A stretch of 64,000 nucleotides of DNA, from NCBI GenBank assembly GCA_963812045.1, contig CAWETF010000003.1, positions 40,209 to 104,208 on the forward strand, in the 5' to 3' direction. This DNA comes from an uncultured delta proteobacterium (GTDB taxonomy: Bacteria > Desulfobacterota > Syntrophia > Syntrophales > Smithellaceae). Position numbers and translations under genes: made by a program. Position 1 is the stretch's first letter. Each line of letters opens with the position of its first letter. The notes under the pieces were generated by a model. That model was not told the DNA's origin. It searched no databases and saw nothing but the letters and a program-made list of their open reading frames with translations. Below, piece by piece: positions 17,331 to 61,399 of the stretch.

Positions 17331-17412
17331 TGTGTCTCCATGCATTTTTATAATGATCGGCAAAGAAAAAATCAGCCGGAGCATTAGCGATCAGCTGTAT
17401 TGATTTGTTGAC

Positions 17413-29847: not shown

Positions 29848-31515
29848 TTAAAGAACTTCGGCAAGATTTTTTAAACCGGCGGTGGGGTTTGTATGAAAAT
29901 GGAAACGGATGATTCTTCGTCCCGCATCTTTTAGCGCCTGCCAGTCTCCCTGGGCCTGGGCGGCTTTGAGCGCGCCGAAGGTGAGAGAAGATTTTTCCTT
30001 GCCGATATCATCGGGAATATTCACATCCAAAGAGTTGTCCTGTGTCAACTGAATAAACAATCCATTTCCGGAATCGCCTTTGTGCAACTGGCCGGTAGAA
30101 TGCAGATAACGCGGGCCATAGCCGAAAGTAACGGGCAGGGCATACTTTTGTGAAATAATTTCTCGCAAGCGGCTGACTGCGGCGTCGACTTCCGATGAGG
30201 GACTCAAATAAATCTGCAGAGAGATGTAGTCGCCGAACTTCGCTTGTTTTAAAAAATTCGTAAAAGCTTCGGCGGATATTGTGCCTGTGATATTGCCGTA
30301 GATATCGCCCTGCGCTGTGGCAAGAGCAGGTTTTTGCTCCGGCATATTTTTCTTTTCCGTATATTCTGCGATTATCCGGCGGGCATGTTTTTTTGCTGCC
30401 TCCACGCCCGGCTGATCAAAGGGATTGACACTCATAAAATGTGCCTCAACAGCTATTGCCATCTCCCAGATAAACATTTGTTTACCCAGATCGTAATCGT
30501 CATGAATTTTAATCGTAATTACCGGATGACCCGCGTTGACTAAAAATTCTGCTGGGAACGGTTTTACATTTTCTTCATTTTGGAAAATTACAAAAACACG
30601 ATCTTTCCCATAAGCAACGTTATCCTGAAGCGGTTCATCCAAAACGGGCAGGATTCCTTTTCCTTCCTTGCCGGTGCTTTCCGCAATCAGTTGCTCCAGC
30701 CAGTCGCCGAATGATTTCCAGCGCGGCGGGAGGATGAAAGTCAGTTTGTCGCGTCCCGCCTGCGCCAGCGTGCCTAAAGCGGCGCCCAGAGACGCGCCAA
30801 TGGCTAACAGCGTTTCAGTATTTGCAACAACCGTTTGCAGTAATTTTTTCACATCAACGCCAATAATCGCCGCAGGAACTATCCCCGGCAGCGAAAGCGC
30901 CGAATAACGTCCGCCGATATTTGGATTGTTAAGAAAAGTATGATACGCGGAAATGCTTTCCGCAGTTTTAATCAGTTGGCTTCCTTCGTCGGTTATAAAA
31001 ACAAACCGGCTTCCGGCTTTGTTTCCTGATTTTTTATAAGCCAGATTATAAAAATATTTAAAGAGCGAAGTTATCTCCAGCGTTGTTCCTGATTTAGAAG
31101 AAACAAGAAAAATAGTTTTTTCCAGATTAAGGCTTTGAGTAAGTTTAGAAATTACAACAGGATCGGTGGTATCCGCGATGTGCAATTGGGGGCAACCGGT
31201 GCTACTTCCGAATATTTTGCTGAAGACTTCCGCGGCCAGCGAAGATCCGCCCATTCCCAGTAAGACGACATCGCTGATGCTGCCGTTTGTAAGTGGTTCA
31301 ATGGCGGCGCGGATATCGATTATCTTAGCCAGTGTTTCGGCGGGAGCGTCGAGCCAGCCCAGCCGGTTGGTAATCTCATCCGGCGCCGGTTTCCAGACGG
31401 TGTAATCTTTCGCCCGGATGCGGAAAATGATATTATCTGCACGCATTTTCTCCAGAGCGCTGTTTACGGTGTTTTGGTATTCATCCAGAGAATAATTAAT
31501 ATATGTCTCGGTCAT
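29848..31515 (-). CDS. pgi: Glucose-6-phosphate isomerase
   Basis: GMGGSSLAAEVF, SKSGTTLET-like SKSGTTLEI and IGGRYSALS motifs. Start moved to MTETYINY so it does not run into tkt. Confidence 0.85.
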   Translation of the reverse strand: MTETYINYSLDEYQNTVNSALEKMRADNIIFRIRAKDYTVWKPAPDEITNRLGWLDAPAETLAKIIDIRAAIEPLTNGSISDVVLLGMGGSSLAAEVFSKIFGSSTGCPQLHIADTTDPVVISKLTQSLNLEKTIFLVSSKSGTTLEITSLFKYFYNLAYKKSGNKAGSRFVFITDEGSQLIKTAESISAYHTFLNNPNIGGRYSALSLPGIVPAAIIGVDVKKLLQTVVANTETLLAIGASLGAALGTLAQAGRDKLTFILPPRWKSFGDWLEQLIAESTGKEGKGILPVLDEPLQDNVAYGKDRVFVIFQNEENVKPFPAEFLVNAGHPVITIKIHDDYDLGKQMFIWEMAIAVEAHFMSVNPFDQPGVEAAKKHARRIIAEYTEKKNMPEQKPALATAQGDIYGNITGTISAEAFTNFLKQAKFGDYISLQIYLSPSSEVDAAVSRLREIISQKYALPVTFGYGPRYLHSTGQLHKGDSGNGLFIQLTQDNSLDVNIPDDIGKEKSSLTFGALKAAQAQGDWQALKDAGRRIIRFHFHTNPTAGLKNLAEVL

Positions 31516-31525
31516 TATCTCACCG

Positions 31526-33583
31526 TTAGCCGCGATGGAGTAATTCTTCTGCCGCCGCGATAATCTTGTCGGTGGTGAAGCCGAATTTTTCAAAAAGTAT
31601 CGGGGCAGGCGCGGAAGCGCCGAATGTTTCCATTCCGATTATTTTCCCCGTGAGCCCCACATAATGTTCCCATCCCAGTTTGATTCCCGCCTCCACCGCA
31701 ATTCTGGCGGAAACCTGCGTCGGCAAAACGCTGTTGCGATATTCTCGCGTCTGGCGGTCGAATATTTCCCAGCTGGGAAGTGAAACAACCCTTACCTTCG
31801 TGCCTTTTTCCGCAAGTGTGCGGGCAGCCGAAAGCGCAAGAGAAACTTCCGAACCTGTGGCGATTAGAATCAATTCCGGATTGGGAGATGATTCCCACAG
31901 AATATAACCGCCGCGTCTCACGCCGGATGCGGCGTTACATACGCTTCTGTCCAGCACCGGCAGATTCTGGCGGCTGAAAACAAGAGTCGTCGGACCGCTT
32001 GTGTTGAACAAGGTAAAACGCCATGCCTCCAGTGTTTCGTTGGCGTCGGCCGGCCGGATGACCGTCATGTTGGGCACCTGGCGCAGATTCATGATCTGTT
32101 CCACCGGCTGATGCGTTGGACCGTCTTCTCCCACGCCGATGCTGTCATGCGTGAAAACAAAGATCGCGCGCACACCCATCAGCGCGGCAAGACGCATCGG
32201 CGGGCGCATGTAATCGGCAAAAGTCAGAAATGTTGCCGTGTAAGGAATGATGCCGCCGTGCAGGGCCATGCCTATGGCAATCGAGCCCATCGCGTGTTCG
32301 CGCACGCCGAAATGAATATTGCGTCCTTCGTAACCCCACGGGCCGCCAACCATGCCGTGCAAACCTTCCGCGGAAAAAGCAGGGCTTTGAAAATCGCCCA
32401 TGCCTTTGAGCCATGTGAAGCAGGAAGGATTCAGATCAGCCGAGCCGCCGGCAAGTTCGGGAACTTTCGCGGCAAGGGTCTGCATAACGATTTCACCAGC
32501 TTTGCGCGTCGCCACATCTTTTGAACCGTTGGGGAATTCGCTCAGTGCCGATTCCCAATTCTCCGGCAACTCACCGCGTGTGATTCGTTCAAATTCCGCC
32601 GTAATCGCCGGATCTTTGTGTTTGCAGTTATCTAAGTTCTCCTGCCATTGTTTCTCTGATTTTTTTCCGCGCGAAAGCGCTTTGCGGAAATATTTTTGGA
32701 CATCATCGGGAATACAGAAGGGTTCTTCGACCGGCCAGGCGCAATTGTCTTTCGCGCCTCGCAGTTCTTTTTCTCCCAGAGGCGAGCCGTGTGCGTCACA
32801 TGACCCCTGTTTGCCGGGCGCGCCGTAACCGATTGTCGATTGCACGCAGATAAGCGATGGTTTTTCGGTTTCACGCTTGGCTTTCTTGATTGCCCGGTCG
32901 ATGGCGGCAACATCGTTGCCGTCGGCAACTTTTTGCACCTGCCAGCCGTAGGACTTAAAACGAAGCTCAATATTTTCTGTACAGGAAAGCGCCGCGGAAC
33001 CGGCAAGAGTTACTCTATTATCATCATAAAGGACGATTAGTTTTCCCAGACGCAGATGACCGGCTAGCGAACAGGCCTCAGCGATAACGCCCTCCATCAT
33101 GTCGCCATCTCCGGCCATGACATAAGTAAAATGATCAACTAAATTTGCGCCGTCACGGTTGAAACGCGCCGCCAGATGCGCCTCGGCAATCACCATACCC
33201 ACGGCGTTGGCCAGACCCTGACCCAGGGGGCCGGTGGTCACTTCCACACCGGGAGTGTGCTTGTATTCGGGATGTCCGGGTGTGCGGCTTCCCCATTGAC
33301 GGAAATTTTTAATGTCGTCGAGCGACAGAGCATAGCCGGTAAGATGCAGAAGGGCATATAAAAGCATCGAGGCATGACCGGAAGAAAGAACAAACCGGTC
33401 GCGGTCGGGCCACTGCGGATTCTTTGGATTATGTTTCAGGTGCTTTGTCCACAAAGTAAAAGCGGCGGCGGCGGCGCCCAAGGGCATTCCGGGATGACCG
33501 GATTTGGCTTTCTCAATCGCATCCGCGGCCAGAAAGCGGATGGTATCAATGCACTTTTTTTCTAACTCGTTTTTGTCGGACAT
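31526..33583 (-). CDS. tkt: Transketolase
   Basis: GHPGMPLG, DRFVLSx[10 protein letters not shown] and [16 protein letters not shown] are canonical motifs. Length 685 aa. Confidence 0.95.
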
Positions 33584-34070
33584 AAAGTCTCCTTAAAAAA
33601 TAATTTGTACCATTCCTATTTCTTCGGCTAACTTTGTTGGCTGCGTCGTCAGCTTTCTCAACGTATTATCAATACGCCTGCGGAGCCTCCTCCTTGCCGC
33701 CGCGTTATCCTTTGAACTAGAAATGGTATAAAGACATGGAAAATCTACTAACATATTTAAGAATATTTTAAAACTTTTCTTGAAATATATTTTAGATGAA
33801 AAATGTTGTAAAATGAATTTCAAAAGATTATATATTAGAAACAATAGGTTATTGAATATTTATGGCTGGAGAGATAGTGTTGAAACGCCCGGAGCTATAC
33901 AAATCAACCTTTATCAGTATGCCGATAAGTCTATGCAAATTAAATTGATCCAGCTGGATTGTCGGCATATTCATGGTTTTGCCACGGGGTAAAAATATTG
34001 CGGACCGTCCTTAATAACGCTCCAACATCCATACAGAATCTTTTTGATAGAAAGTGATGAAGAATGAGTT

Positions 34071-35594
34071 ATGAAATCCATTAATAAATATATCGGGCTT
34101 TTACTATTTATTTTTGCATTAGTGATAGGTTTCATAAATTATGATCAATACGGCATTGCCTGGGATGAGGCAGCACAACGCGAAATAGGGACCGTCAATT
34201 ACAATTATATTTTTTCTGACAGTAAGGAACTTATGACCCATTTCGGCAGATATTATGGCGTGGCTTTCGAACTTCCTTTAATCATCATAGAAAAGACCAT
34301 GGGGTTTACAGACATCAGAGATATTTATTTAGCGAGGCATTTGATATCGCATATATTTTTTCTAATCGGTGCTTTATGCTGTTTTTTATTAATCGACTTT
34401 TTATATAAAAATAAATTACTGGCTTCAACAGGTTTTCTGCTAATCATATTATATCCGCTGTTGTACGCTCATTCATTTTTTAACACCAAAGATATTCCTT
34501 TTGCCGCAATGTTTTTAATCTGTTTTTATTTGAACGCTGTTGCGTTTAGTAAGCCGGGAATAAGAAATTTTATTTTTCTCGGAATAGGGGTTGGCATCCT
34601 CATAAGTATGAGAATTATGGGCATGCTGTTATTTTGTTGCAATCTGTTTTTCCTGGCAATCGATTTCTTCATGATAAAAGAAGATAAAGAAAGCCGTAGG
34701 AAAATAATCAAATTGTTTTTAACATTTCTTGCCGCCACAGCAATCACATTGTACATCACCTGGCCGTTTTTATGGAAAGATCCAATCACTAATTTTATAT
34801 ATTCGTTTCATAACATGGCTAAATGGCCATGGCAGGGACTTGTTTTGTTTAATGGCCGATTTATCAGATCAACGGAAATTCCATGGAATTACATTCCCGT
34901 ATGGTTTGTTATTACAACACCCATTTATTATCTGCTGGCCGGTTTTGGCGGTATAATTTTACTTTTTATAAATTTTATAAGAAGCCCTTTTCCTTTTTTG
35001 TCAAACACAAAAGAAAGAAATAATCTTCTTTATTTAATTTGTTTTTTCGTTCCTGTTGTGGCTGTAATTATTCTGAAATCCGTACTGTACGATGGATGGA
35101 GGCAGATGTATTTTATTTATCCATCCTTTGCTCTCCTGGCAATATATGGACTGAATTATATACTGCAATTCAAGTTTAAAAGAGTAATCATCTTAATAAC
35201 CTTTCTGTTTTTTGGTTATATAGGTTATTTTATGATTGCCAATAATCCTTTTCAGCATGTTTATTTTAATGAATTAATGAGCACTAAACCGCCGGAATAC
35301 ATAAGAACACATTTTGAGCTTGATTACTGGTGCACGTCATATAAACAATCCCTGGAATACATATTGGAAAATGATAAATCTCCTTTAATAAATATAACGC
35401 CTTATAGCTATAATATTAATATTTTACCTTTTGAAAGCAGAAAAAGAATAAATTTTGTAGAGATCCAATATGCAAAATATTGTATTACCAATTACAGATG
35501 GCACCCCAAAGATTATTCAGGATTGAAACAGCAAAAATGGCATGCTTTCAAAGTAAATAACAATACGATTAATGAAATCTTTAAACTCAGATAG
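34071..35594 (+). CDS. GT-C-fold membrane glycosyltransferase (ArnT/PMT, GT39/GT83-like)
   Basis: 507 aa with more than 10 TM segments. The acidic motif AWDEA sits in the first extracytoplasmic loop, as in polyprenyl-phosphate-sugar-dependent transferases, and there is a soluble C-terminal domain. Confidence 0.55.
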   Translation: MKSINKYIGLLLFIFALVIGFINYDQYGIAWDEAAQREIGTVNYNYIFSDSKELMTHFGRYYGVAFELPLIIIEKTMGFTDIRDIYLARHLISHIFFLIGALCCFLLIDFLYKNKLLASTGFLLIILYPLLYAHSFFNTKDIPFAAMFLICFYLNAVAFSKPGIRNFIFLGIGVGILISMRIMGMLLFCCNLFFLAIDFFMIKEDKESRRKIIKLFLTFLAATAITLYITWPFLWKDPITNFIYSFHNMAKWPWQGLVLFNGRFIRSTEIPWNYIPVWFVITTPIYYLLAGFGGIILLFINFIRSPFPFLSNTKERNNLLYLICFFVPVVAVIILKSVLYDGWRQMYFIYPSFALLAIYGLNYILQFKFKRVIILITFLFFGYIGYFMIANNPFQHVYFNELMSTKPPEYIRTHFELDYWCTSYKQSLEYILENDKSPLINITPYSYNINILPFESRKRINFVEIQYAKYCITNYRWHPKDYSGLKQQKWHAFKVNNNTINEIFKLR

Positions 35595-35627
35595 CACAGG
35601 AAGATCAAGTAAGACAAAATTAAAAAA

Positions 35628-36602
35628 TTAAATTTGTTCTTGCCTGGTTCGTTCTTGTTTTATCCAGTTATAACTTGCCTCAATTCCCTTTCGGAGGCTT
35701 GTTTTTGGAATAAAACAGAAATATTTTTGGAATAAACTATTATCGGAGTCCCTGTTAAAAACACCCACGGGTCCGGGGACATGTTTTATATCCAATTTTT
35801 CTCCGCTTATTTCTATAATTGTTTTTGCCAACTCATTTATGGAAATAGATTTAACCCCTCCCATATTAAAGATAAAAGGTTCTTTTAAATCTTTTATCAT
35901 AATAAGATGTATGCCCTCCAGGTAGTCTGCAATATAGCAGTAATTTCTTTTTTGCTCCCCGTCTCCCCAGATTTCAATACAATCTTTTTTTGTTCCAATG
36001 GCTTCCATGACTTTCCTGCAAATTGCCGCATAAGCCATTTCTCTTCCGTTATTCCAGGTGCACTCCGGTCCATAGATGTTTTGCGGCCTGACAATCTTAA
36101 TATCAATTCCATACTCTCTGTAATATCTGCAAATATGCTCCGCCTGAAGTTTCTCCCAACCGTAAGCGGAATCCGGATCGGCAGGATAAACATCTGTTTC
36201 TTTCATTGGCTTAGCGTCAATTGTATTTTGCTTGTAAGCAGGATAAACGCAAGCAGATGAAGAATACAGATATTTTTTCACTTTATTTTTTCTCACGGCC
36301 TCAAGGGTATACCAGTCGATCAACGTGTTATTATACGTTATCTTCTCTTGATTCTTTGAATCAAATAAGAACCCTGCACCGCCTACATCGGAAGCCATTG
36401 CAAACACCCAATCAATATCTTTTGTTGCAATGAGGCAATTTTTAAAATGTCTTAAATCTGATAACAGGAACTCATCTCCTTCAAATTGACAATCTGAATT
36501 TCTACAATCAACTCCTCTGACCCAATAACCCCTTTTTTTTAGATATTTTACTAAATGATGTCCTACAAATCCGGATGCGCCGGTAACACAAACTCTTATC
36601 AT
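35628..36602 (-). CDS. NAD-dependent sugar-nucleotide epimerase resembling GDP-mannose 3,5-epimerase
   Basis: VTGASGFVGHHL Rossmann motif. SSACVYPAYKQ, YGWEKL (YxxxK), QNIYGP and NGREMAYAAICRK parallel the GME motifs SSACIYPEFKQ, YGLEKL, HNIYGP and GGREKAPAAFCRK. Confidence 0.7.
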   Translation of the reverse strand: MIRVCVTGASGFVGHHLVKYLKKRGYWVRGVDCRNSDCQFEGDEFLLSDLRHFKNCLIATKDIDWVFAMASDVGGAGFLFDSKNQEKITYNNTLIDWYTLEAVRKNKVKKYLYSSSACVYPAYKQNTIDAKPMKETDVYPADPDSAYGWEKLQAEHICRYYREYGIDIKIVRPQNIYGPECTWNNGREMAYAAICRKVMEAIGTKKDCIEIWGDGEQKRNYCYIADYLEGIHLIMIKDLKEPFIFNMGGVKSISINELAKTIIEISGEKLDIKHVPGPVGVFNRDSDNSLFQKYFCFIPKTSLRKGIEASYNWIKQERTRQEQI

Positions 36603-36603
36603 T

Positions 36604-37602
36604 TTAATTTCCCACTTCGTTTGTTGAAAAATATTTTATCTTAAAATAGGCAGATAAATAGGCAGAAGCGGTCAGCCAGCTGACAAACGGATGCAGAATC
36701 CATTCTGTTTTTCCGTCTCTCGCCCATAAGTAAACAGCCTGAATCAGATTTGGAATGAACATTAAGTGCTTCAAAAGACCCCAAACAACTTTTAACTTGC
36801 CCCAGCAGGAATCCGGAATCCAGTGAAAATCTCTATTTTCCGAGCCTTCTTTAAAATAAATACAGGCCCATTTATATTTCTTTTTCGTAAAATTCCACAT
36901 TTTATCTGCAATCAAATGATGAATGGTCGCATTTTTAGGAATAGCTAATTTTGCCAGTCCTTTTTTGGCTAAATTATAGACAACATCTGTATCTTGAGTA
37001 TAACCCCCTATCTTTTTTAAAGTGCTTCTTTTAATAGTAAAATAATACCCTCCTGTTATTGCAAATTTTTCAGGAGTTATATTATAAGTAAAATAATCTC
37101 CTTCATTATTTAATTCTAATGCTTTAAAAGCTAATAGTGCCTCTATTGATTTATCTGCAACAACAGGATCTGTTCCTACTAAACTTAAATATCTATTTAA
37201 TAAACAATCTTCTTTAACAACAGCCAGTCTGCATATAGAAAACCCAATTGTATCATCTTTAATTAGGGGGCTTATCATTTGCCTTGTCCAGTCTTTTTGC
37301 ATAAGCTTATTATCTGAATCTATAAATATTAATATATCTCCTTTTGACTCATGATATCCCTGCCATTTTGCGCCGCCCGCGCCTTCAGGACGTTTGTCGT
37401 TAAATAATATGTGAACCCCTATCTCTTTTAATATTTCAATGGTGCCGTCTTTAGAATATCCGTCCACGGCAATGATTTCTGTTCTTTCTTTCGGGTAATC
37501 CTGTTCAATAATCGCTTGAATGCATCTCCTTATAATAGTTGCATTGTCTTTCGTACATACGATGTAGCTAACACTTGGCCAATCTTTCATTTGTTTGTAC
37601 AA
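36604..37602 (-). CDS. Family 2 glycosyltransferase
   Basis: VSYIVCTKDNA...IIAVDGYSKDGT...FIDSDN (DxD), the GT-A N-terminal pattern. Confidence 0.75.
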   Translation of the reverse strand: MYKQMKDWPSVSYIVCTKDNATIIRRCIQAIIEQDYPKERTEIIAVDGYSKDGTIEILKEIGVHILFNDKRPEGAGGAKWQGYHESKGDILIFIDSDNKLMQKDWTRQMISPLIKDDTIGFSICRLAVVKEDCLLNRYLSLVGTDPVVADKSIEALLAFKALELNNEGDYFTYNITPEKFAITGGYYFTIKRSTLKKIGGYTQDTDVVYNLAKKGLAKLAIPKNATIHHLIADKMWNFTKKKYKWACIYFKEGSENRDFHWIPDSCWGKLKVVWGLLKHLMFIPNLIQAVYLWARDGKTEWILHPFVSWLTASAYLSAYFKIKYFSTNEVGN

Positions 37603-37708
37603 AAAACTCCTTTAACTTATGAGTAACTTGATTACTTAAAATGTTTTTAAAGAATTGGCCATATATTTTTTCTTGCAATTTCTTTTTGATTGAAGCGAAA
37701 AGGACATT

Positions 37709-38938
37709 TTACGCAGAAGTTAATTTTTTCTTCAGGGCATCAATTTCTCTTAAATAAAGCAGCCATGCAATAAACGATATTATCAGGGGACTATATTCCC
37801 AAAAAAGTTGCAGGATAGGAGCTGAAAAATTAGGTGTAGATAGACAAACTAGAATTAGTAACAATATTGCTCCTGTCTTTTTATACGACTTGATAATCAG
37901 ATAAAAAACGGGAAGTACCGCTAAAAGATAAGAATAGTTTTTAAATCGCGGTAAAATAATTATTATTCCTAAACATAAAGTAAAAACAAGAAGTAACTTT
38001 GCTTCCCGATCATTATTCTTTATTAGTTCCCTTAATTTAACCCAGGTCAAAAACGATACGACCGAAACAAATGCCAGATAAATTGAAATAAATAAATATG
38101 ACGGAGCGTCCGGATATATTAATATAATGAATGATCTGAAAAATTCCAGACTGCAGGCAGCGGTTATTCCACCTTCTTTAATGGGGTTAGTTATTCCGCC
38201 ATCTTTGCCTGCGTATGAGAAGAAAGCATTCGCATAATCTCCTGTAAGTTTTGGTTCTATAAAATAGTTAAGCGCCAGGTATGAAATAAAAATTACCACC
38301 GATGAAAGAAAGACCTTCATTTTGTTTTTTGATGGTGAAAATAAAATGAAAATAAGAAAAACCACAGGTACTATTTTAATAGTAGAAACAATGATTATCA
38401 ATAAAGAAAACTTCCAGAGTTTTTCCTGCAGAAAAAAATAAATGGCTGTCCATATTATGAGTTGTTCAAATATTGAAATATTTCCTGAGAATAAATCAAC
38501 AGACATTGCAGCGCCAAACGCCAGAAGGCTGAAATATAAGAATGCAATGAAGTGTTTTTTTTCAAAATATATTTTAGACCAGATGTAATATAAACCGATC
38601 AAAGCCACAAGTTTAATGAATAAGAAAATTGCCGTTGCTGATTCGATATCCAAAATTGCAAAAGGGAAATAGTAATATGTCGCTATCGGGGGATACATAT
38701 AGGGCAATGGCGCAATATTAGTATGAAGAAGGTAAAGTTCTCTTGTATTATAAGGGTTAAGATGATGCATCAAGCATTTTGCGGCGGCATAATATCCCTG
38801 GAAATCCCATAGATAATAAATTCTTTGGTGGAATATATATAAAAATAAGCCGATCAAATAACCGGTAAAAAAAATAAAAAATATTTTCTCAATGGTTTTT
38901 AATGACTTAAAATATTTTAAGAATGAAATCATCTGCAT
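37709..38938 (-). CDS. Polytopic membrane protein, GT87/DUF2029-like putative glycosyltransferase or glycan polymerase
   Basis: 409 aa with about 11 TM segments and the motif PYMYPPIATYYYFPF, which resembles the Y-x-Y-P-P motif of DUF2029/PimE-like GT-C enzymes. Confidence 0.45.
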   Translation of the reverse strand: MQMISFLKYFKSLKTIEKIFFIFFTGYLIGLFLYIFHQRIYYLWDFQGYYAAAKCLMHHLNPYNTRELYLLHTNIAPLPYMYPPIATYYYFPFAILDIESATAIFLFIKLVALIGLYYIWSKIYFEKKHFIAFLYFSLLAFGAAMSVDLFSGNISIFEQLIIWTAIYFFLQEKLWKFSLLIIIVSTIKIVPVVFLIFILFSPSKNKMKVFLSSVVIFISYLALNYFIEPKLTGDYANAFFSYAGKDGGITNPIKEGGITAACSLEFFRSFIILIYPDAPSYLFISIYLAFVSVVSFLTWVKLRELIKNNDREAKLLLVFTLCLGIIIILPRFKNYSYLLAVLPVFYLIIKSYKKTGAILLLILVCLSTPNFSAPILQLFWEYSPLIISFIAWLLYLREIDALKKKLTSA

Positions 38939-38964
38939 TCCGCCGTTTCAACGTTTCTAATACA

Positions 38965-39558
38965 TTACTTAACTGACGGCTCTCCTTTTTTCTGATTCAA
39001 TTTCGGATGCGATACCAACAGATGCCATACAAACGCTTGAAAAACCTCAGAATGAGTTGTAATGGTTTCATTATTAACAGAAGGAACTATCACACACGCA
39101 TCCGCCACCTGCGCCGTGTAACCGCCGTCACGGCCAACCACACCGGTAATTTTAGCGCCAACAGATCTGGCATACTTCAGGGCTTCCACGAGATTCGAAC
39201 TGATGTTTTTTTCAAGGTTACCACCGCCGACAGAAAAGATAAAGACGGCATCCCTGGATGAGAGCCGGCTCGTTTTCAGCCATTCAACAAAGATGGATGC
39301 CCATCCCTCATCATTTGTACGCGCTGTCAATTCGGAGACATTATCCGTCGGGGCATAAGATTCTATCCCGGCTATTTTACGGAAATCATTTACCGCATGA
39401 GAACAATTGGCTGCGCTTCCTCCCACACCGAGAAAAAATATACGTCCTTCATTCTCTTTAACGCTTGCGAGGATATCTGCCATCTTCTCAATCACTTCAA
39501 CATCCAGTTTATTGAGGATACTGATTGCCTCGTTTATATGCTGCTGAGCGTAACTCAT
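38965..39558 (-). CDS. gmhA: SIS-domain sugar-phosphate isomerase, probable D-sedoheptulose-7-phosphate isomerase
   Basis: FFLGVGGSAANCSHAVNDF SIS motif, ~197 aa. The ATGA start/stop overlap indicates translational coupling to the next genes. Confidence 0.65.
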   Translation of the reverse strand: MSYAQQHINEAISILNKLDVEVIEKMADILASVKENEGRIFFLGVGGSAANCSHAVNDFRKIAGIESYAPTDNVSELTARTNDEGWASIFVEWLKTSRLSSRDAVFIFSVGGGNLEKNISSNLVEALKYARSVGAKITGVVGRDGGYTAQVADACVIVPSVNNETITTHSEVFQAFVWHLLVSHPKLNQKKGEPSVK

Positions 39559-40262
39559 GATTCTTCTCTCTCCCTGAAATACTGGATCGTTTCATTCAAC
39601 CCCTTTTGAGAACCGATTTCATAAAATCGTTCGAATACTTCGTGTCCAGCCAATAAACCTTCAACCGAAAGCTCATAATAAATGTCCGCCAAATCGAAAG
39701 GCTGATCAACCGGTACATTTTCAAAAACTGAATACGAGAGTATACCCAATCCGTAGTCAATGTATAACATCTCAGGCCTGGTTACATGTTTGTTGTATTC
39801 AGTAACACAACCATCGTAAAATAAAACATTGCTCTTGTCCCACTGATTGTCATTTTTCAGCACTGTCATCATGGCAGGCTTTTCACTTACCCAAAAATCA
39901 CGCTCAACTGCTTTGAAGTCAATTGGCAAGTAAGAGTCCCCGTAGTAAACAAAAAATTCCTTACCCAAAAGAGGCAAAGCTTTCTTCAATGCACCGCCGG
40001 TACCCAGCAGGCGCGGACCATCCCATGAATAATGTATGTCCAATCCAACATTCGAACCGTCACCGACAAGCGCCTCAACCTGCTCACCCAGATGCCCAAG
40101 ACAAATCACAACACTTTTAACATCTTGTTTATGTAAATATTGAAGTTGTCTTAATATAAAAGGTTTGCCGGCCACATCAACCAGCGCCTTGGGAATTTTT
40201 TCGGTTAGGGGTCTCAGACGCGTCGATAAACCTCCTGCAAGGATTGCAACCGGTATACTCAT
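39555..40262 (-). CDS. Sugar-1-phosphate nucleotidyltransferase, HddC-like (D-glycero-D-manno-heptose-1-phosphate guanylyltransferase candidate)
   Basis: AILAGGLSTRLRPLTEKIPKALVDVAGKPF nucleotidyltransferase signature. It sits between the GmhA-like and HddA-like genes. Confidence 0.6.
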   Translation of the reverse strand: MSIPVAILAGGLSTRLRPLTEKIPKALVDVAGKPFILRQLQYLHKQDVKSVVICLGHLGEQVEALVGDGSNVGLDIHYSWDGPRLLGTGGALKKALPLLGKEFFVYYGDSYLPIDFKAVERDFWVSEKPAMMTVLKNDNQWDKSNVLFYDGCVTEYNKHVTRPEMLYIDYGLGILSYSVFENVPVDQPFDLADIYYELSVEGLLAGHEVFERFYEIGSQKGLNETIQYFREREES

Positions 40263-41239
40263 GCGAACACAACCTTTGTGCCTTCGAAATCAAAGCGAAA
40301 TCGCACTTCTTCAAGTCCCGCGTGTGTCATCGCATGTTTTAGACGATTCCTATCATCGGCATAAAACATGAGAAAACCGCCGCCTCCTGCGCCAACTAAT
40401 TTTCCGCCAAGCGCGCCATTTTTTCGTCCGAGTTCATACCATTTATCAATCTGTGGATTGCTGATGTCCTTTGATCTTATTCGTTTATTTTCCCAGTGCT
40501 CATGCATTATTTCTCCGAACAACTTTGGATTTCCATCTTCAAGGGCTTTTTTACTTTGCAATCCAAGTTCCTTGATGACGTGTAAATTTTTGAGCATATC
40601 TTTATCGGATTTTTCAGAGCGTATTTTTTGATCCTGCAAAATATTACCGGCACTTCTGGAAAAACCCGTAAAAAATAAAAGAAGATTGTCTTCCAAATCA
40701 AATAAAGTATCCGAACTGATCTTGAGGGGTGTTGATTCCACAGAATCATCTTTATTAAAATTGAAGCAAGTCAACCCTCCGTATGCCGCAATATATTGAT
40801 CCTGCTTACCGATAGGTTCTTTTAATTTTTCAATTTCAATTTCACAAGCCAGCTTTGCCAAATCACCGGGCAACAGCAGTTTTCTTTCCTGCATGAATAA
40901 TGCCTTTAACAGTGCCGTAGTAAAACTGCCCGACGAACCTAAGCCCGTGCCGGCAGGAATGTCCGCCAAAGTTGTTATTTCGATCTGAGGCTTTTCCAAC
41001 TTAAGCAATTTAATAGCTTCTCTCAGTATAGGATGCTGCACATCTTCTGCTTTTTCAGCACGTTCAAGTTTTGAGTATTTCAGAAAAATTCCAGGCGTGA
41101 AGGGTTTTATAACCGTCACATAAACATATTTATCGATAGCCGCCGCCATTAGAAAACCGCCATATTTGCGATAATAAGACGGCAAATCGGTTCCACCGCC
41201 ACCAAGCGTGATGCGCAAAGGACTACGTGTTAGTATCAT
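40259..41239 (-). CDS. GHMP-family sugar kinase, HddA-like (D-glycero-D-manno-heptose-7-phosphate kinase candidate)
   Basis: The N-terminus RSPLRITLGGGGTDLPSYY is typical of HddA-type kinases. The GHMP motif PAGTGLGSSGSF and a C-terminal GAGGGGF are also present. Confidence 0.7.
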   Translation of the reverse strand: MILTRSPLRITLGGGGTDLPSYYRKYGGFLMAAAIDKYVYVTVIKPFTPGIFLKYSKLERAEKAEDVQHPILREAIKLLKLEKPQIEITTLADIPAGTGLGSSGSFTTALLKALFMQERKLLLPGDLAKLACEIEIEKLKEPIGKQDQYIAAYGGLTCFNFNKDDSVESTPLKISSDTLFDLEDNLLLFFTGFSRSAGNILQDQKIRSEKSDKDMLKNLHVIKELGLQSKKALEDGNPKLFGEIMHEHWENKRIRSKDISNPQIDKWYELGRKNGALGGKLVGAGGGGFLMFYADDRNRLKHAMTHAGLEEVRFRFDFEGTKVVFA

Positions 41240-41481
41240 TATTAAATTCCTTGCAAATATGCTGAGTAAATTTCAACTATTCATAGGGATCTATTGATTG
41301 ATTATTGATATTTCTACCACATGTTGAAGTAAAATTCCGCATTTTTTATTACGAAATGCACATATGTTTTTCGAAACAGAGAACGTCAACTTGGCGAGCT
41401 ATATTGCTTAACACGCTTTATTCTTTAGGCATCTATTTCTCTCTGCCGTCGAAAACTGGCAAAATGTCGTACAGAAAAAAA

Positions 41482-41510
41482 TTGACATGACATATAAACT
41501 TACTTATATC
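41482..41510 (+). promoter_or_regulatory. Putative sigma70 promoter (TTGACA-N17-TATATC) for the GT2 gene at 41610
   Basis: Hexamers at 41482-41487 and 41505-41510 in an AT-rich divergent intergenic region. AT-rich DNA raises the false-positive risk. Confidence 0.3.
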
Positions 41511-41609
41511 TTCAACTACAAGAAAGTAGCTTTTATTAAAAATACTAAACAAGCTTATGAACACCACCAAGACTAACTTTAAGCATTTGCAATACACTCA
41601 CAACTTTAA

Positions 41610-42332
41610 ATGAAAAAAATATTAGTGGTAGTACCCGTATATAATGAAGAAGAGATTCTTGAAAAGCATGTCAAGATATTACATGATTTTCTATCAGACA
41701 ATTTTTCGCAATATGAATGGGAGATTATAATTGCAGCCACCATATCTAAGGATAAAACTTTTGAGATAGGAAGATCCCTGGAAAGGGAATTGAAGCAGGT
41801 AAAATTTTATGACTGTCAAATAGCCCCTAAAAGCCTTGCCATTAAAATAGCCTGGTTATCCGAAGAAGCCGATATATATTGTTACATGGATATGGATTTA
41901 TCAACAGATATAAAATACACAGTCAATTTGATCAATGCGATAGAACAAGGCAATGATCTTGCAATTGGTTCACGTACATCAGAAGAATCAAAAACCGCCA
42001 GACATTTCATCAGACATTTGATTTCAGTCACATTAATATTTCTGCTTAAATTATTATTTTGTACAAAAATAAACGATTTTCAGTGTGGATTTAAAGCAAT
42101 TAATCGGCAAGTCAGAGATAAAATTTTACCCCAAATGAAATCTTTAAACCACGGGTTTATGGATACTGAACTTTTATTGGTTTCCTTAGATCAGGGTTAC
42201 AAAATAAAAGAAATTCCCGTTAACTGGTGTGATGAACGTAAAAGTAAAGTCAGATTTTTCGGAGCCGTAACCGATGCGCTCTTCAGTATGTTAAGAATAA
42301 AACTTGATTTGAGTCTCGGTAATTATAGATAA
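41610..42332 (+). CDS. Family 2 glycosyltransferase of the polyprenol-phosphate sugar synthase type (DPM1/ArnC/ALG5-like)
   Basis: VVPVYNEEE, YMDMDLSTD (DxD) and QCGFKA are motifs typical of Dpm1/GtrB-like enzymes. It is a 240-aa soluble-type catalytic domain. Confidence 0.65.
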   Translation: MKKILVVVPVYNEEEILEKHVKILHDFLSDNFSQYEWEIIIAATISKDKTFEIGRSLERELKQVKFYDCQIAPKSLAIKIAWLSEEADIYCYMDMDLSTDIKYTVNLINAIEQGNDLAIGSRTSEESKTARHFIRHLISVTLIFLLKLLFCTKINDFQCGFKAINRQVRDKILPQMKSLNHGFMDTELLLVSLDQGYKIKEIPVNWCDERKSKVRFFGAVTDALFSMLRIKLDLSLGNYR

Positions 42333-42336
42333 GGAT

Positions 42337-42654
42337 CTATGTAGTCTCATGATCAAGCCATTTTAAATATTTCCTGCTTCCCTTGATGATCGGCACAGCA
42401 ATAATTTCCGGCGTTTCATAGGGATGCAGTTTTTTTATCGCAGATTCAACCTTATCAAAAAGACTTGCCCTTGTTTTAATCAGGCATAACCACTCAGGTG
42501 CTATTTCCACTTTTCCCTTCCAGCGATATGTGCTTTCAACAGGACCGGTAATTTGCACGCAGGCGGCCAGTTTTTGCTCGACTAAATATTGAGCGATCTT
42601 TTGCGCCTGTCTTTTTGTGTTCGTTGTTGTAGATATTTGAATGTAAGACGTCAT
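42337..42654 (-). CDS. cutA: Divalent-cation tolerance protein CutA
   Basis: 105 aa with LVEQKLAACVQI...STYRWKGKVE...E..L.IKT...HPYETPEI, the CutA1 pattern. Confidence 0.85.
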   Translation of the reverse strand: MTSYIQISTTTNTKRQAQKIAQYLVEQKLAACVQITGPVESTYRWKGKVEIAPEWLCLIKTRASLFDKVESAIKKLHPYETPEIIAVPIIKGSRKYLKWLDHETT

Positions 42655-42674
42655 AAAATCACCATCTATTTAAC

Positions 42675-42796
42675 GACCTTGCAAAAAGCTTCAGAGGCAA
42701 GGCGCGCAAAACCCGAGGAGTGAGGCGTACTTTTTAGTGTACGTCGCAACGACGAGGGTTGCAGCGCAACGCAGCATATGAGCTTTTTCCAGGGTC
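42675..42796. repeat. ~120-nt imperfect palindromic intergenic element
   Basis: Outer arms GACCTTGCAAAAAGCT (42675-42690) and AGCTTTTTCCAGGGTC (42781-42796) are complementary at 14/16 positions. Inner partial complementarity (GCAAAACCCG / CGAGGGTTGC; CGTAC / GTACG) surrounds a TTTTTA centre. Confidence 0.5.
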
Positions 42797-42797
42797 G

Positions 42798-43607
42798 TCA
42801 TTTTTTTACGCACTCGTACATCATTATAGCCGCTGCCTGCGGCAAACTCAAAGAATCGGCCTTGCCGCTTCCGGGGATGCTCCACTTTTCATCGGTCATT
42901 CTTAAAATGGCCTCCGGCAGGCCATGACTTTCATTGCCTAGAATCAGAGCGGCCTTTTTCTGAACCGGATGAGGCAATAAACCATCGCGGACATCAGAGC
43001 CTATAAGAAAAAAGCTTTTATTAATTTCCGGTAATGCCACGGATAAATCAATCTCCGGAATAATTGTCAAATGGAAAATAGTTCCCATGGAGGCGCGCAC
43101 GGCTTTGGGGTTTGTATAGTCCGCCGAGTTGACACTTAATATTATTCCGGTAAAGCCAAACCATCGCGCGCTGCGCATGAGCGCTCCGAGATTACGAGGG
43201 TTGTTGATTGCATGCAAGATTAAAATGTTACCGGAAGTATTTGCGCATAAGGAGGAAATATTCTGCGGCTGCTTTATTTTCACCACAGCCATGATTCCTT
43301 CGGGTTCCCTGTCCTGTCCTATTTTTTGCCACTGGTTACGCGTAAGCTGATAAACGGGAATGTCTTTTGCGGCGGGAAGCGCAAGCTTCTCCCAGTATTT
43401 TACCTTTTCGGGCATAATAAGCAATGCTTCGATCTGCCAGTCGCTCGCCAGTAGTTCTTCAACCACTTTAACGCCTTCGGCTAAAAAAGTCACTTCCTCC
43501 TGCCTCGTTTTAGCATCATTGAGCTTTGCCCATTTTTTAAGCAGTGCTTGCGAAATATTTAAAAATTCAGTCATCATGAAATCCTGATTATTTTTTTCTC
43601 GCGACAA
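42798..43607 (-). CDS. TrmH/SpoU-family RNA 2'-O-methyltransferase
   Basis: SPOUT motifs: NPRNLGALMRSA, LILGNESHGL and SLSLPQAAAIMMYE. The true start may be the internal MMTEF (43577), which removes the overlap with terC. Confidence 0.8.
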   Translation of the reverse strand: MSREKNNQDFMMTEFLNISQALLKKWAKLNDAKTRQEEVTFLAEGVKVVEELLASDWQIEALLIMPEKVKYWEKLALPAAKDIPVYQLTRNQWQKIGQDREPEGIMAVVKIKQPQNISSLCANTSGNILILHAINNPRNLGALMRSARWFGFTGIILSVNSADYTNPKAVRASMGTIFHLTIIPEIDLSVALPEINKSFFLIGSDVRDGLLPHPVQKKAALILGNESHGLPEAILRMTDEKWSIPGSGKADSLSLPQAAAIMMYECVKK

Positions 43608-47927: not shown

Positions 47928-48080
47928 AACAGCAATACACTAAACATATACAAACGATACAGCAGCAAAAAATAATCAATGTTTTTTTCAGATGAGCGAA
48001 AGCGAGGAGTCATCTAAAAAATAAAATGTCTCGCTTTACTCGACATGACGAATAAATTCCATTTGGTTCGGGAGGATAAG

Positions 48081-49733
48081 ATGAAAATCAGGAAAATATT
48101 CAGCACAGCATTGTTGATCTTTGGCGCAATCAGCACTCTTATAATTTTTTCAAGTAACGCTTATGCTGACTTAGGCTCCGGGATTGGCGAATTTTATATC
48201 TGGTTTTTAATTATTGCCTCGTTACAGATAGTGCTTCTTATTACATGGTTCATTGTACATATATTATCCAAAAAGAGTTCTATAGCAATACTGATAACTC
48301 GGACTTTTATTGATTTGGCGACGATTATAATCAGTTCAATTTCAATATGGTTTTTTTCTACTACTGCACTCGGCATCCCTTTGGGTTCCGGATTATGGGA
48401 GGCAATATTCAATTCATTGACCTGTTTTAATTATTATAAACTTTCTATTTTAGTCATATTAATTTTATTTATTCTTTATTTTATGAACCAATGGATAATA
48501 TCTCTATCGAAATCCAACCGTATCGTAATTCATTTTTTCCAGTGCATATTTGTAATATTAACCATATTAATAATATTTTCACCGACGTTTGCAGGGCCGG
48601 TTACACGATGGTTTGTAAATCCAGATTCATTAATACGGTATGACGAGCCGTTTTCGACATTAAACAATGCAAAACTATGTGCTGAATGTTATGGTTTTGA
48701 TAAGAAAATAATTTCATTCTATGACTTTGAAATGAAATTGTATGAAAGTTCAGAATATGAGGTGTTGAAACCTATCGAAAAACCCGCCGCACCGCCTATT
48801 ACAGTGCCAGTCACGAATACTCCATCAGCGCCGCAACCTATTGATCAAAAGACCCAAAATCTTTCTACACAAACAGAGAATGATTATGATGTTAACGATT
48901 ATTTAATTCTCCAGGATATTGGTGATTATAAATTAAGAACTTATAGAAATATTTCATTTACAGAAAACAAGCGCATCAACAATAATTATATACTGAAGAT
49001 TGGAGTTGAACCTTTTGAGGGTGGTCATTATATTCCGGATCATAAAGATATAGCTTATATTACGGAATATTCGAGAGAAAGAATTAAAAGACAACCTTCT
49101 GATGATTCAAGATCAAAAAGATTAAGATTTATATGTAATTGCGGTGATGTTGATATAAACATTGTAAGACATATGGGCGGTGAGTCTGACAAATGGCTTC
49201 AACACGAATTAGTTGAAGAATTTATACGGGGAGAAGATGGAAAAGAAAAAATATTAACTACAGATATAAACGGTAATAAAGTATTTACAATGACTAAATG
49301 TGGTTTTGCTCTACAAGATGTTACTTATGGGTGGTTGCATAATAATGTGATCATTAAAATTAAATGTGACAGAGAGATTGGTTACAAGACTACACCAACA
49401 GAAATAATCAGTGCCTATCTCAAAAAGTTTCCTTCAACAATTCAACCAGTGGATATTAAAAAATGGAAACGTGATAGGACGGAATACGAATTATGGCTTG
49501 GCAAAAAATGGATGAAACAGATAAAGAATGCAGAACCGCTAGATGATAAAATTTTAACAATCGCGTTAAAGCACATTTTTCTTTATTTGAATTTTAGAGA
49601 GGAAGAATATGGTAAAAAGGCGATTGATGACAAAAAGAAACTCTGGAAATTATATCTGGCAAAAGATCTCCCGCAAATAAATAAATTTGTCGCTGATAAT
49701 GAAAAGTGGTTGGCACAAGAAGTTAAAAAATAA
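48081..49733 (+). CDS. ORFan membrane protein: signal peptide, about 6 TM segments, Pro-rich linker, ~290-aa soluble C-terminal domain
   Basis: GGGAGG RBS before ATG 48081. Features are MKIRKIFSTALLIFGAISTLIIFSSNAYA, a hydrophobic block, and the linker PAAPPITVPVTNTPSAPQP. No family is recognised. The gene is AT-rich. Confidence 0.5.
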   Translation: MKIRKIFSTALLIFGAISTLIIFSSNAYADLGSGIGEFYIWFLIIASLQIVLLITWFIVHILSKKSSIAILITRTFIDLATIIISSISIWFFSTTALGIPLGSGLWEAIFNSLTCFNYYKLSILVILILFILYFMNQWIISLSKSNRIVIHFFQCIFVILTILIIFSPTFAGPVTRWFVNPDSLIRYDEPFSTLNNAKLCAECYGFDKKIISFYDFEMKLYESSEYEVLKPIEKPAAPPITVPVTNTPSAPQPIDQKTQNLSTQTENDYDVNDYLILQDIGDYKLRTYRNISFTENKRINNNYILKIGVEPFEGGHYIPDHKDIAYITEYSRERIKRQPSDDSRSKRLRFICNCGDVDINIVRHMGGESDKWLQHELVEEFIRGEDGKEKILTTDINGNKVFTMTKCGFALQDVTYGWLHNNVIIKIKCDREIGYKTTPTEIISAYLKKFPSTIQPVDIKKWKRDRTEYELWLGKKWMKQIKNAEPLDDKILTIALKHIFLYLNFREEEYGKKAIDDKKKLWKLYLAKDLPQINKFVADNEKWLAQEVKK

Positions 49734-57264: not shown

Positions 57265-58056
57265 TTATCCTCCGTACCAACACTTTGGTAGTACAAGAGG
57301 GGAACCCATAGCGTCATTATCACAATCAAGCGGATTCGGAAAATTATTTTGGTACGAAGTCTTTTCCATTCGGTCGTTTCTCAGAAACGTGAACTCCATT
57401 ACTTGAGGGATATCAAGCCCATTTATTTGTAAATGGGATTCGAAGTTGTTTGGGTGGATGTGTATGCAAGAGTGTGTTTCCAAAATTTTTTCGAATGCAC
57501 GTCCAGCCAAGTTAAAGAACGGCCAACTCCAAAGCATATTGAGTGAATGGAACTCTGCGACGATGATTCTAAATCTTTGCATTAAGGCATCGGATGTAGA
57601 TAGAAATACTTCGTACTCATACCCTTCAATGTCGATTTGTAATAACAAATCAGTGTGTTTCTCCAGAAGAGATGAAGCCACCCAATTGTCAAGGGTCGTG
57701 AAATCGTCATTTGATGTGACACCAACGAATTTTTTTGTAAAGTAAAATAGTTCATTCTTAACGGCTGATCCGTCTACAGATTTATCGGCTAGAAAAACCT
57801 TCATACCTAACTCGGCACAATCTTTTTCAAATCCAGAGGCAAAGCCGACCCCAGGAGAGAAACATGCCTGAATCCCCACAAGATCATTAGGAACCAAATA
57901 GCCACCATCACCTTTTGGACCTAAGCGAATAAGCTCTTTGTCGGTGGATAAAGGAGAAAGCTTTTTCAATAAGGATTGAAGCTTTCTCCGATCCGTCATT
58001 GGGGTCGTAAACCTGTTTACTCTGGCAAGAATTTTTGTTAGAAAATTTCTTTTCAT
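57265..58056 (-). CDS. FkbM-family methyltransferase
   Basis: LLQIDIEGYEYEVF matches the FkbM-domain motif (KIDIEGxExxVL). GGGAGG RBS before MKRNFL. Confidence 0.6.
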   Translation of the reverse strand: MKRNFLTKILARVNRFTTPMTDRRKLQSLLKKLSPLSTDKELIRLGPKGDGGYLVPNDLVGIQACFSPGVGFASGFEKDCAELGMKVFLADKSVDGSAVKNELFYFTKKFVGVTSNDDFTTLDNWVASSLLEKHTDLLLQIDIEGYEYEVFLSTSDALMQRFRIIVAEFHSLNMLWSWPFFNLAGRAFEKILETHSCIHIHPNNFESHLQINGLDIPQVMEFTFLRNDRMEKTSYQNNFPNPLDCDNDAMGSPLVLPKCWYGG

Positions 58057-58204
58057 AGGAGAACCTCCCGACAATTCTGATCTGCTCCGAATACTTGTAC
58101 CATAAGTTAAGTTAGGATTCAGGCATTTTTAATATCTCATAAACAGATAGGTTTGATTGTCAGTCTGAGCAAGTTGTCCTCTTGCTCCAGTATGTCGAAA
58201 ATAA

Positions 58205-59137: not shown

Positions 59138-59204
59138 ATTAATCCCTGCATGTGCACAAAATTCCTAATCTTGTCTCCGTAATAACCATTTCTAACGGTT
59201 CTTA

Positions 59205-60350: not shown

Positions 60351-60405
60351 ACTTTCTGTAAGGGACGTTTTTTATGATCTGGCCTATGCTATATTCTGCA
60401 GATTT

Positions 60406-61371: not shown

Positions 61372-61399
61372 GCTCCTAACTCCGGCAAGAATACGGCAA

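Follow-up and report, generated by a model that had tools for sequence, protein, structure and literature searches.

The 64,000-nucleotide stretch analysed here (the window, meaning the whole stretch), from contig CAWETF010000003.1 of an uncultured delta proteobacterium, contains an island of glycan genes in which heptose-activating enzymes stand beside transferases of the lipid-carrier type. We assign a probability of roughly 55%, on the basis of gene context and protein fold, to the reading that this island is a heptose version of the polyprenyl-phosphate-mannose pathway, its product polyprenyl-phosphate-heptose being used by a polytopic GT-C-type glycosyltransferase of family GT87. The other components are a GHMP kinase, a sugar-1-phosphate nucleotidyltransferase (NTP-transferase) and a SIS isomerase, together called the trio, and GT2_240, a family-2 glycosyltransferase (GT2) of 240 amino acids. 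An earlier examination of the letters of the window (the sequence-only reading) had proposed that a heptose passes through a lipid-phosphate carrier to a GT-C transferase, and the comparison of gene contexts presented here supports that central proposal.

In the proposed route, the SIS protein would isomerise sedoheptulose-7-phosphate, the GHMP kinase would phosphorylate the heptose at C1, a GmhB encoded elsewhere in the genome would strip the 7-phosphate, and the NTP-transferase would activate the sugar with a nucleotide that is probably GDP. GT2_240 would move the heptose onto polyprenyl phosphate at the cytoplasmic face of the membrane, some flippase would turn the lipid-phosphate-heptose across it, and GT87 would add the heptose in the periplasm to an envelope acceptor. 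What the analysis shows is the order and translational coupling of the genes, the family and fold of the enzymes, an intact trio, and a repeated linkage, assembled independently, between heptose-pathway genes and polyprenyl-phosphate GT2s, GtrA and GT-C proteins; we infer the identities of sugar and nucleotide, the donor of GT2_240, the supply of GmhB in trans and the acceptor.

The heptose trio and its cassette in other genomes

The kinase matches Pfam GHMP_kinases_N and GHMP_kinases_C, and its best NCBIfam match is HddA (178 bits against a cut-off of 600). Its four best PDB matches, at 152-174 bits, are heptose-phosphate kinases (3k85 from B. thetaiotaomicron, WcbL 4usk and 4usm from Burkholderia and 4n3o from C. 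jejuni), and the next class, fucokinase, reaches 66 bits. The description of this protein as HddA-like is borne out by these closest structures, which point to a probable specificity for heptose. The kinase keeps 125 of 127 family-invariant positions in a very large family with a fixed length of 326 amino acids and about 75% identity across phyla, whose hosts include Chloroflexota, Burkholderiales, Leptospirillum, Verrucomicrobiota, Thiotrichaceae, Syntrophales and Desulfobacterota; the nearest named relatives belong to Smithellaceae and Syntrophaceae. Conservation of this degree is unusual and points to a cassette that often moves horizontally, to very strong constraint, or to a combination of the two.

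For the nucleotidyltransferase, which had been called HddC-like, the superfamily stands (Pfam NTP_transferase, with 37 of 37 family-invariant positions kept), but in NCBIfam MurU scores higher (116 bits, cut-off 250) than HddC (88 bits, cut-off 300). PDB structures of MurU (4y7t, 8hhd) and HddC (5xhw, 6jq8) match about equally, and only in the N-terminal half. GDP is the probable nucleotide, and a neighbouring gene that resembles GDP-mannose 3',5'-epimerase (GME) gives no more than an indirect hint of a GDP-sugar.

The SIS protein (Pfam SIS_2) has gmhA models as its top four NCBIfam matches (49 bits, cut-off 209), and all 12 of its PDB sequence matches are GmhA. Aligned to E. coli GmhA (with consistent residue numbering), it keeps H61, D94, S124, Q172 and H180, while the catalytic E65 is Asp throughout the subfamily. 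The GmhA-only structure matches and the retained active-site pattern agree with the assignment as a GmhA-like isomerase. The protein keeps 61 of 64 invariants, and the only non-conservative changes in the trio, P168T and W192G, lie in or just before its C-terminal tail. At the family level, Pfam, NCBIfam and PDB searches uphold the call made for each enzyme. None of the curated NCBIfam equivalog cut-offs for GmhA, HddA and HddC is reached by the trio, which is a related subfamily of the textbook enzymes, outside the curated orthologue sets.

We analysed 80 genomic loci centred on the kinase (compared loci and contigs are labelled with L-numbers), and the kinase-NTP-SIS trio is their conserved core. 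A GmhB homologue follows it in 57 of the 69 informative loci (phmmer with a validated GmhB seed) and a transaldolase in 41; often preceding it are a GFO/IDH/MocA oxidoreductase, a short-chain dehydrogenase, a UDP-glucose-dehydrogenase-like enzyme (UGDH-like) and an NAD-epimerase. A co-directional cassette of ten genes is widespread, in the order NAD-epimerase, UGDH-like, short-chain dehydrogenase, GFO/IDH/MocA, GHMP, NTP, SIS, GmhB, transaldolase and GT2 (L082 5884-14888, L083 and many of L002-L081). That four of its genes encode oxidoreductases implies that its sugar is a modified heptose or one derived from heptose, and we found no description of this ten-gene cassette in the literature. Among relatives there are also fusions of NTP with SIS (L037) and of NTP with HAD (L095 682-2007), and open reading frames (ORFs) of about 530-550 amino acids that contain a GmhB domain (L027, L044 and L047). 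Such diverse fusions constitute Rosetta-stone evidence that the heptose-pathway enzymes act together. Transaldolase is a source of sedoheptulose-7-phosphate; with the GmhB homologue, the transaldolase and the fusions, the cassette of the relatives reads as a pathway from sedoheptulose-7-phosphate to NDP-heptose.

Linkage of heptose genes to lipid-carrier transferases

GT2_240 (Pfam Glycos_transf_2) finds PgfS, dolichyl-P-hexose transferase, PpgS, AglJ and ArnC as best NCBIfam matches, all below their cut-offs, and the P. furiosus DPMS 5mlz as its sole PDB sequence match. A Foldseek search with its AlphaFold2 (AF2) model (pLDDT 93.6) places ArnC, DPMS and GtrB in the first 23 ranks (TM 0.73-0.79), and of these targets it spans only the catalytic part (TM-score to target 0.55-0.60). 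Its chain closes with one long helix (residues 216-236), and the C-terminal transmembrane (TM) helices that GtrB and ArnC possess are missing. In its family, which has about 3,250 members, the DxD motif, D94-x-D96, is invariant. The predicted fold and this motif favour the Dpm1/ArnC-like character given to it by the sequence-only reading, and we propose that GT2_240 is a polyprenyl-phosphate-heptose synthase. The polytopic protein, for its part, passes the Pfam threshold for the DUF2029/GT87 family in which it had been placed (PF09594, 46.8 bits against a cut-off of 25, E 4e-12, residues 80-319). It has 8 TM-like segments, and in NCBIfam it matches PimE-type mannosyltransferase with E 6e-10, but at 38 bits against a cut-off of 413. 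We propose that it acts as a periplasmic heptosyltransferase using lipid-phosphate-heptose.

In two sister lineages, both recovered from a single JGI sample, the same site on the chromosome holds a shorter island with the order CutA, GT2_240 (divergent), kinase, NTP-transferase, SIS, GT87, transketolase and PGI. Their kinases are 91% and their GT2_240 proteins 81-83% identical to those of the window, and GT87 adjoins SIS in both. As the sisters carry GT2_240, the trio and GT87 alone at this site, these five genes form a conserved unit, module A; GT2_240 and GT87 are the only transferases available there for the activated sugar. The trio looks functional, because its invariants are kept and because it is conserved with GT2_240 and GT87 in both sister lineages.

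Away from this site, three relatives of GT2_240 (49-53% identity; L094, L095 and L096-98, the last labelled Pacearchaeota by NCBI) lie directly downstream of GHMP, SIS, in some cases HAD, and transaldolase genes, with gaps of about 20 nt, and an NTP-transferase gene is found close upstream. The kinases of these loci are 46-50% identical to that of the window, each locus has a GmhB homologue, and the polytopic proteins near the GT2_240 relatives include PMT_2 and a putative glycosyltransferase of the LA_3751/LA_3752 family. The TM-less GT2 family of about 240 amino acids is present both in the window and in contigs labelled Pacearchaeota or resembling CPR/DPANN lineages. A metagenome contig scan with GT2_240 returned 5 relatives only, none of them informative. 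The loci of the GT2_240 relatives have a guanine plus cytosine (GC) content of 30-34%, resembling the 32-33% of GT2_240 and GT87 in the window; it appears that a heptose-linked, AT-rich GT2 recombined with a different, host-type heptose trio.

In the set of 80 loci, an ArnC/PgfS-like GT2 with TM helices (PgfS 225 bits, ArnC 152) lies upstream of the cassette and co-directional with it in 18, and GtrA adjoins the cassette in 9 and also in L084. Two polyprenyl-phosphate GT2 subfamilies other than that of GT2_240, GtrA and GT-C proteins flank the cassette in about 20 of the 80. L084, whose kinase is 86% identical to that of the window, has the order AglJ/dolichyl-P-hexose-transferase-like GT2, methyltransferase, GtrA and GHMP-NTP-SIS-HAD-transaldolase, with a PMT_2 GT-C gene converging on the cassette from downstream; in L002, GtrA lies upstream and two GT87 genes, non-orthologous to that of the window, come right after the transaldolase. 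Linkage to heptose-pathway genes has thus come about for each of three distinct polyprenyl-phosphate GT2 subfamilies and of several GT-C families. By a rough estimate, a genome holds a few polyprenyl-phosphate GT2s per several thousand genes, so that the presence of one within 10 kb at roughly one locus in four is a strong enrichment.

Most of the 64 polytopic ORFs near the cassette have no Pfam match, and a minority fall in the GT-C-type families TMEM260-like, PMT_2, GT87, DUF6056, YfhO and PTPS_related/STT3. Beside some cassettes there are tandem arrays of 3-4 paralogous proteins of about 510-565 amino acids with 9-11 predicted TM segments (L074 11409-17833; L041 4533-6164 and 12699-16045). 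Two array members scanned singly (L074 11409-13028 and L041 4533-6164) gave no Pfam match, and these proteins are candidates for a new GT-C-like family.

Taken more broadly, these linkages may indicate that polyprenyl-phosphate-heptose (in archaea, dolichyl-phosphate-heptose) is a widespread donor, made by dedicated DPMS-like GT2 subfamilies and used by GT87, PMT_2 and unclassified polytopic families, so that heptoses or heptose-derived sugars would be added outside the cytoplasm in many phyla. We regard this generalisation as tentative, at a little under even odds.

The most serious alternative, which we consider unlikely, is that GT2_240 and GT87 work as a conventional pair for polyprenyl-phosphate-mannose or -glucose, the trio feeding cytoplasmic transferases (GT2_332, a second GT2 of the island, or those of a cluster at 57-64 kb) and the adjacency being that of a generic surface-glycan island. 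Mannose is what characterised members of both families use, 5mlz being the sole PDB sequence match of GT2_240 and GT87 resembling the PimE type; the divergent orientation of GT2_240 and its GC content, unlike that of the trio, suggest separate origins, and other glycosyltransferase genes are present in the window. Yet the sister islands, with only GT2_240, the trio and GT87, offer no other local transferase for NDP-heptose, the relatives with about 50% identity to GT2_240 are co-operonic with heptose genes in 3 of 3 contexts sampled, and polyprenyl-phosphate GT2s of three subfamilies recur in this association. The mosaic make-up of the island also argues that GT2_240 depends functionally on heptose supply.

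It is improbable that GT2_240 makes a soluble product of the heptosyl-phosphoglycerate type, like GpgS or MpgS, with the GT-C genes unrelated to it. Its short length without C-terminal TM helices would suit such an enzyme, and glucosyl-3-phosphoglycerate synthases appear among the Foldseek matches from rank 24 (TM 0.65-0.72). However, each of the 23 matches ahead of them is a polyprenyl-phosphate transferase, their E-values are better by about four orders of magnitude, NCBIfam places its five best-matching families ahead of GpgS, and GT-C or polytopic proteins adjoin the GT2_240-type gene in every context examined. In addition, TM-less polyprenyl-phosphate synthases exist, as are the catalytic domain of Ppm1, PpgS and human DPM1.

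Excision of the trio and the missing gmhB

Blastn comparison of the window with the canonical cassettes of its nearest relatives in Smithellaceae/Deltaproteobacteria (L082, L002 and L084) confines the DNA homology (75-80%) to 41291-38940. It starts about 50 bp upstream of the kinase start, within the 370-bp spacer, runs through the end of SIS and ends about a dozen bases into the position of the gmhB start of the relatives. Exactly at this recombination breakpoint, the tail of SIS (38965-38990) has about 10 last residues, 'QKKGEPSVK', versus the conserved 'QTKWES' of the family; SIS is 193 amino acids long in the sister lineages versus 199 in canonical cassettes. No remnants of GFO/IDH/MocA, HAD (GmhB), transaldolase, short-chain dehydrogenase or UGDH were detected in the window by tblastn, and the trio appears to be a cleanly excised piece of the widespread cassette. 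An origin from an L002-like ancestor (SIS-GmhB-transaldolase-GT87) by simple deletion of gmhB and tal was considered and rejected, the GT87 of the window not being orthologous to those of L002.

The sequence-only reading had seen no GmhB-like phosphatase in the cluster, and with a validated E. coli GmhB sequence as seed, phmmer (E<=10) finds no homologue in the whole window. The capsule locus of C. jejuni NCTC 11168 likewise has genes for GmhA, HddA and HddC but none for GmhB, whose gene (Cj1152) belongs to the lipopolysaccharide (LPS) heptose cluster (PMC10680097). Because that capsule locus relies on a distant GmhB, the missing gmhB is no real objection to a heptose pathway in the island, where it is not needed in cis. 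Least probable among the alternatives is that the trio is a non-functional remnant, its pathway broken by the excision of gmhB and transaldolase and the transferases using other sugars: the absence of a GmhB that 57 of 69 relatives have, the loss of the 'TKWES' motif of SIS (W192G) at the breakpoint and the loss of catalytic Lys217 in the neighbouring GME-like gene would fit it, but the three ORFs are intact and translationally coupled with nearly all invariants kept, the GmhB-less arrangement persists in two sisters that have diverged to 91% (kinase) and 81-83% (GT2), and in C. jejuni a GmhB-less trio works with GmhB encoded elsewhere.

Transketolase and a PGI-like gene (window 29848-33583, minus strand) abut the island, and the transketolase comes directly after GT87 in both sister lineages. 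Transketolase yields sedoheptulose-7-phosphate, the substrate of the heptose pathway. It may stand in for the lost transaldolase of the cassette, or its position may be a coincidence.

Points against a lipid-linked heptose route

Several observations weigh against a lipid-linked heptose route. Its support is genomic, consisting of gene context and fold. In the island (33.5-42.8 kb) there is no GtrA-like or other flippase candidate, at least two TM-like segments being found only in the two GT-C genes, and gmhB is absent within 64 kb in a search covering the window only. NCBIfam scores far under the cut-offs, together with MurU scoring above HddC, make the nucleotide and even the exact sugar uncertain. 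GT2_240 is divergently transcribed here and not co-operonic with the trio. The context sample is small, close GT2_240 relatives being rare in the contig scan, and since L094 and L096 share further synteny, the three contexts amount to about two independent lineages. Finally, the characterised DPMS and GT87 enzymes use mannose. D-glycero-D-manno-heptose is mannose with one additional carbon, and as both enzyme families are mannose-specific in the members characterised so far, a heptose analogue of the route would need only a modest change of specificity.

Comparison with known systems and significance

Known GDP-heptose systems share their enzyme types with the island; its operon is compact, and in C. 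jejuni NCTC 11168, too, gmhB lies outside the locus. Compared with known GDP-heptose systems, the genes of the window represent a distinct, widespread subfamily, with a 326-aa kinase and a SIS protein that has Asp for the catalytic Glu. Those systems use cytoplasmic transferases and lipid-pyrophosphate or lipid-anchored acceptors, whereas the partners in the island are a DPMS-type GT2 and GT-C proteins.

The island is alike to the actinobacterial route from Ppm1 to GT87/PimE and the eukaryotic and archaeal routes from DPMS to PMT/ALG in the combination of a TM-less GT2 of DPMS fold with GT87 and in a proposed donor of manno configuration; we infer by analogy that transfer across the membrane by invert-then-invert steps would be common to them. 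It differs from them in that its GT2 is linked to heptose genes and not to GDP-mannose genes, and in that the host is a Gram-negative, Syntrophales-like bacterium and not an actinobacterium. The pairing of a polyprenyl-phosphate GT2 with a GT-C protein is shared with GtrA/GtrB/GtrC, which glucosylates O-antigen, with ArnC/ArnE-F/ArnT, which modifies lipid A, and with PpgS/Rv3632/Rv3779. Unlike the Gtr and Arn systems, the island of the window has no flippase gene, and GT2_240 is without the pair of C-terminal TM helices that GtrB and ArnC have; in related loci, GtrA and dedicated sugar-nucleotide genes join the same block, much as the arn operon is built.

The three-component systems known carry Glc, Ara4N, GalN, GlcNAc or Man, and none was found with heptose; lipid-phosphate sugars so far are those of Man, Glc, Ara4N, GalN/GalNAc, GlcNAc and Araf. 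Our search of the full-text literature, with incomplete coverage, found no description of undecaprenyl-, polyprenyl- or dolichyl-phosphate-heptose or of a link between GDP-heptose and polyprenol, in agreement with the remark of the sequence-only reading that it did not recognise the route as described for heptoses. To our knowledge, ADP- or GDP-heptose is the direct donor, in the cytoplasm, for every heptosyl transfer characterised so far (LPS core, autotransporter heptosylation, capsules and S-layer glycans). The novelty would lie in a three-component glycosylation of the Ppm/Arn/Gtr type with a new sugar, for which the support is genomic.

If the proposed route is true, polyprenyl-phosphate-heptose would join the short list of lipid-phosphate sugars, and extracytoplasmic glycosylation would extend to heptoses. 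It would also provide a function for a large conserved cassette, found from Desulfobacterota and Verrucomicrobiota to Chloroflexota and candidate-phyla lineages, and for several polytopic families that now lack annotation. Heptose metabolites are innate-immune agonists, for which reason new heptose pools would be of wider interest. Module A, with a minimum of five genes (GT2_240, kinase, NTP-transferase, SIS and GT87), is small enough for reconstitution in E. coli.

Organization of the locus and neighbouring genes

All eight ORFs reported for this span are present in the ORF listing of the window (Table 1), and another assembly covering the region (Logan, L001) agrees with the window at 100% identity from 33791 to 42927 (9,137 nt). 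The genes named by the sequence-only reading stand; it had overlooked one gene within the span, the GME-like short-chain dehydrogenase/reductase (SDR). The ATGA start/stop overlaps it described are plainly visible in the sequence at 40259-40262 and 39555-39558. Since the same 4-nt overlap recurs in homologous loci, at 31 of 71 kinase/NTP junctions and 16 of 63 NTP/SIS junctions, these overlaps are not due to chance.

Table 1. Features of the glycan island, in window coordinates.
Feature	Position	Strand	Remarks
GT-C507	34071-35594	+	GT39/GT83-like (PMT_2) GT-C transferase; convergent with the minus-strand operon; module B
GDP-mannose-3',5'-epimerase-like SDR	35628-36602	-	Catalytic Lys217 replaced by Met; module B
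GT2_332	36604-37602	-	Second family-2 glycosyltransferase; module B
GT87 (DUF2029, PimE-like polytopic GT-C)	37709-38938	-	Module A
DNA-homology block to canonical heptose cassette	38940-41291	.	75-80% identity; sharp breakpoints at both ends
SIS isomerase, GmhA-like	38965-39558	-	Putative sedoheptulose-7-phosphate isomerase of a distinct subfamily
NTP-transferase, HddC/MurU-like sugar-1-phosphate nucleotidyltransferase	39555-40262	-	Putative heptose-1-phosphate guanylyltransferase
GHMP kinase, HddA-like	40259-41239	-	First gene of the operon
Divergent intergenic region, 370 bp, AT-rich	41240-41609	.	GC 31.1%; between GT2_240 and the kinase operon
GT2_240	41610-42332	+	Divergent; DPMS/ArnC/GtrB fold without TM helices; putative polyprenyl-phosphate-heptose synthase; module A

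The span is an island of low GC, with 32-37% in the transferase and epimerase genes versus 42.6% in the whole window. GC is 32-34% across GT2_240 (32.9%), GT87 (31.9%), GT2_332 and GT-C507 (32.3%), about 37% in the GME-like gene and a host-like 41-46% in the trio. The island is a mosaic of two modules, A as described above and B with GT2_332, the GME-like SDR and GT-C507. The spacer between GT2_240 and the kinase presumably holds promoters in both directions; a promoter scan was not above shuffled expectation, and promoter and terminator scanning gave no clear operon boundaries.

Module B appears to be a later addition, an insertion specific to the lineage of the window, and its genes are absent from the islands of both sister lineages. 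The sequence-only reading had counted an ArnT/PMT-like GT-C protein and the second GT2 as members of the heptose cluster; their families hold, but a systematic link to heptose does not. GT-C507 (507 amino acids) scores 22.6 bits with Pfam PMT_2, under the threshold of 26.1; most of its homologues carry PF13231, and NCBI gives these homologues the name GT39. The top 36 Foldseek matches of its AF2 model (pLDDT 93.1) are all GT-C enzymes, and after TM1 it has the acidic motif of the first extracytoplasmic loop, with D32 invariant and E33 nearly so ('WDE'). Homologues elsewhere have no heptose neighbours and sit among other GT-C paralogues or housekeeping genes, for which reason GT-C507 was dropped as a heptose-specific partner. 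GT2_332 (Pfam Glycos_transf_2) has weak NCBIfam matches to MftF, GpgS and PglI, weak PDB matches restricted to the N-terminal part, and 0 TM-like segments.

The GME-like SDR aligns over its full length with A. thaliana GME 2c59 (270 bits, E 2.5e-79), against 84 bits for GDP-fucose synthase, and shares with it Cys145, Tyr174 and Lys178. The second acid/base residue, Lys217, is Met, whereas among 100 GME-family representatives this position is Lys in 92 and Met in 0. The same ATG codon is present in assembly L001, and a single change from AAG to ATG would explain the replacement. With the catalytic Lys217 lost, the canonical double epimerisation is doubtful, and the enzyme may be impaired or repurposed. 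The family points to a probable GDP-linked substrate of manno configuration, with an activity left uncertain by K217M. Module B may lengthen the glycan that module A serves, or its enzymes may work on another GDP-sugar.

A separate glycan cluster lies at 57265-63597 (minus strand) of the window, with an FkbM-type methyltransferase, a GT10, two GT4-type transferases, a DXD sugar-binding glycosyltransferase and a GT2; GT10 is the family of alpha-1,3-fucosyltransferases. Its cytoplasmic transferases could in principle be used with the GDP-sugars of the island too. Two further AT-rich patches (32-34% GC), one with a 562-aa ORF (48045-49733, plus strand) and one with ORFs of 231 and 159 amino acids (16689-17892, minus strand), none of which has a Pfam match, may be additional foreign insertions.

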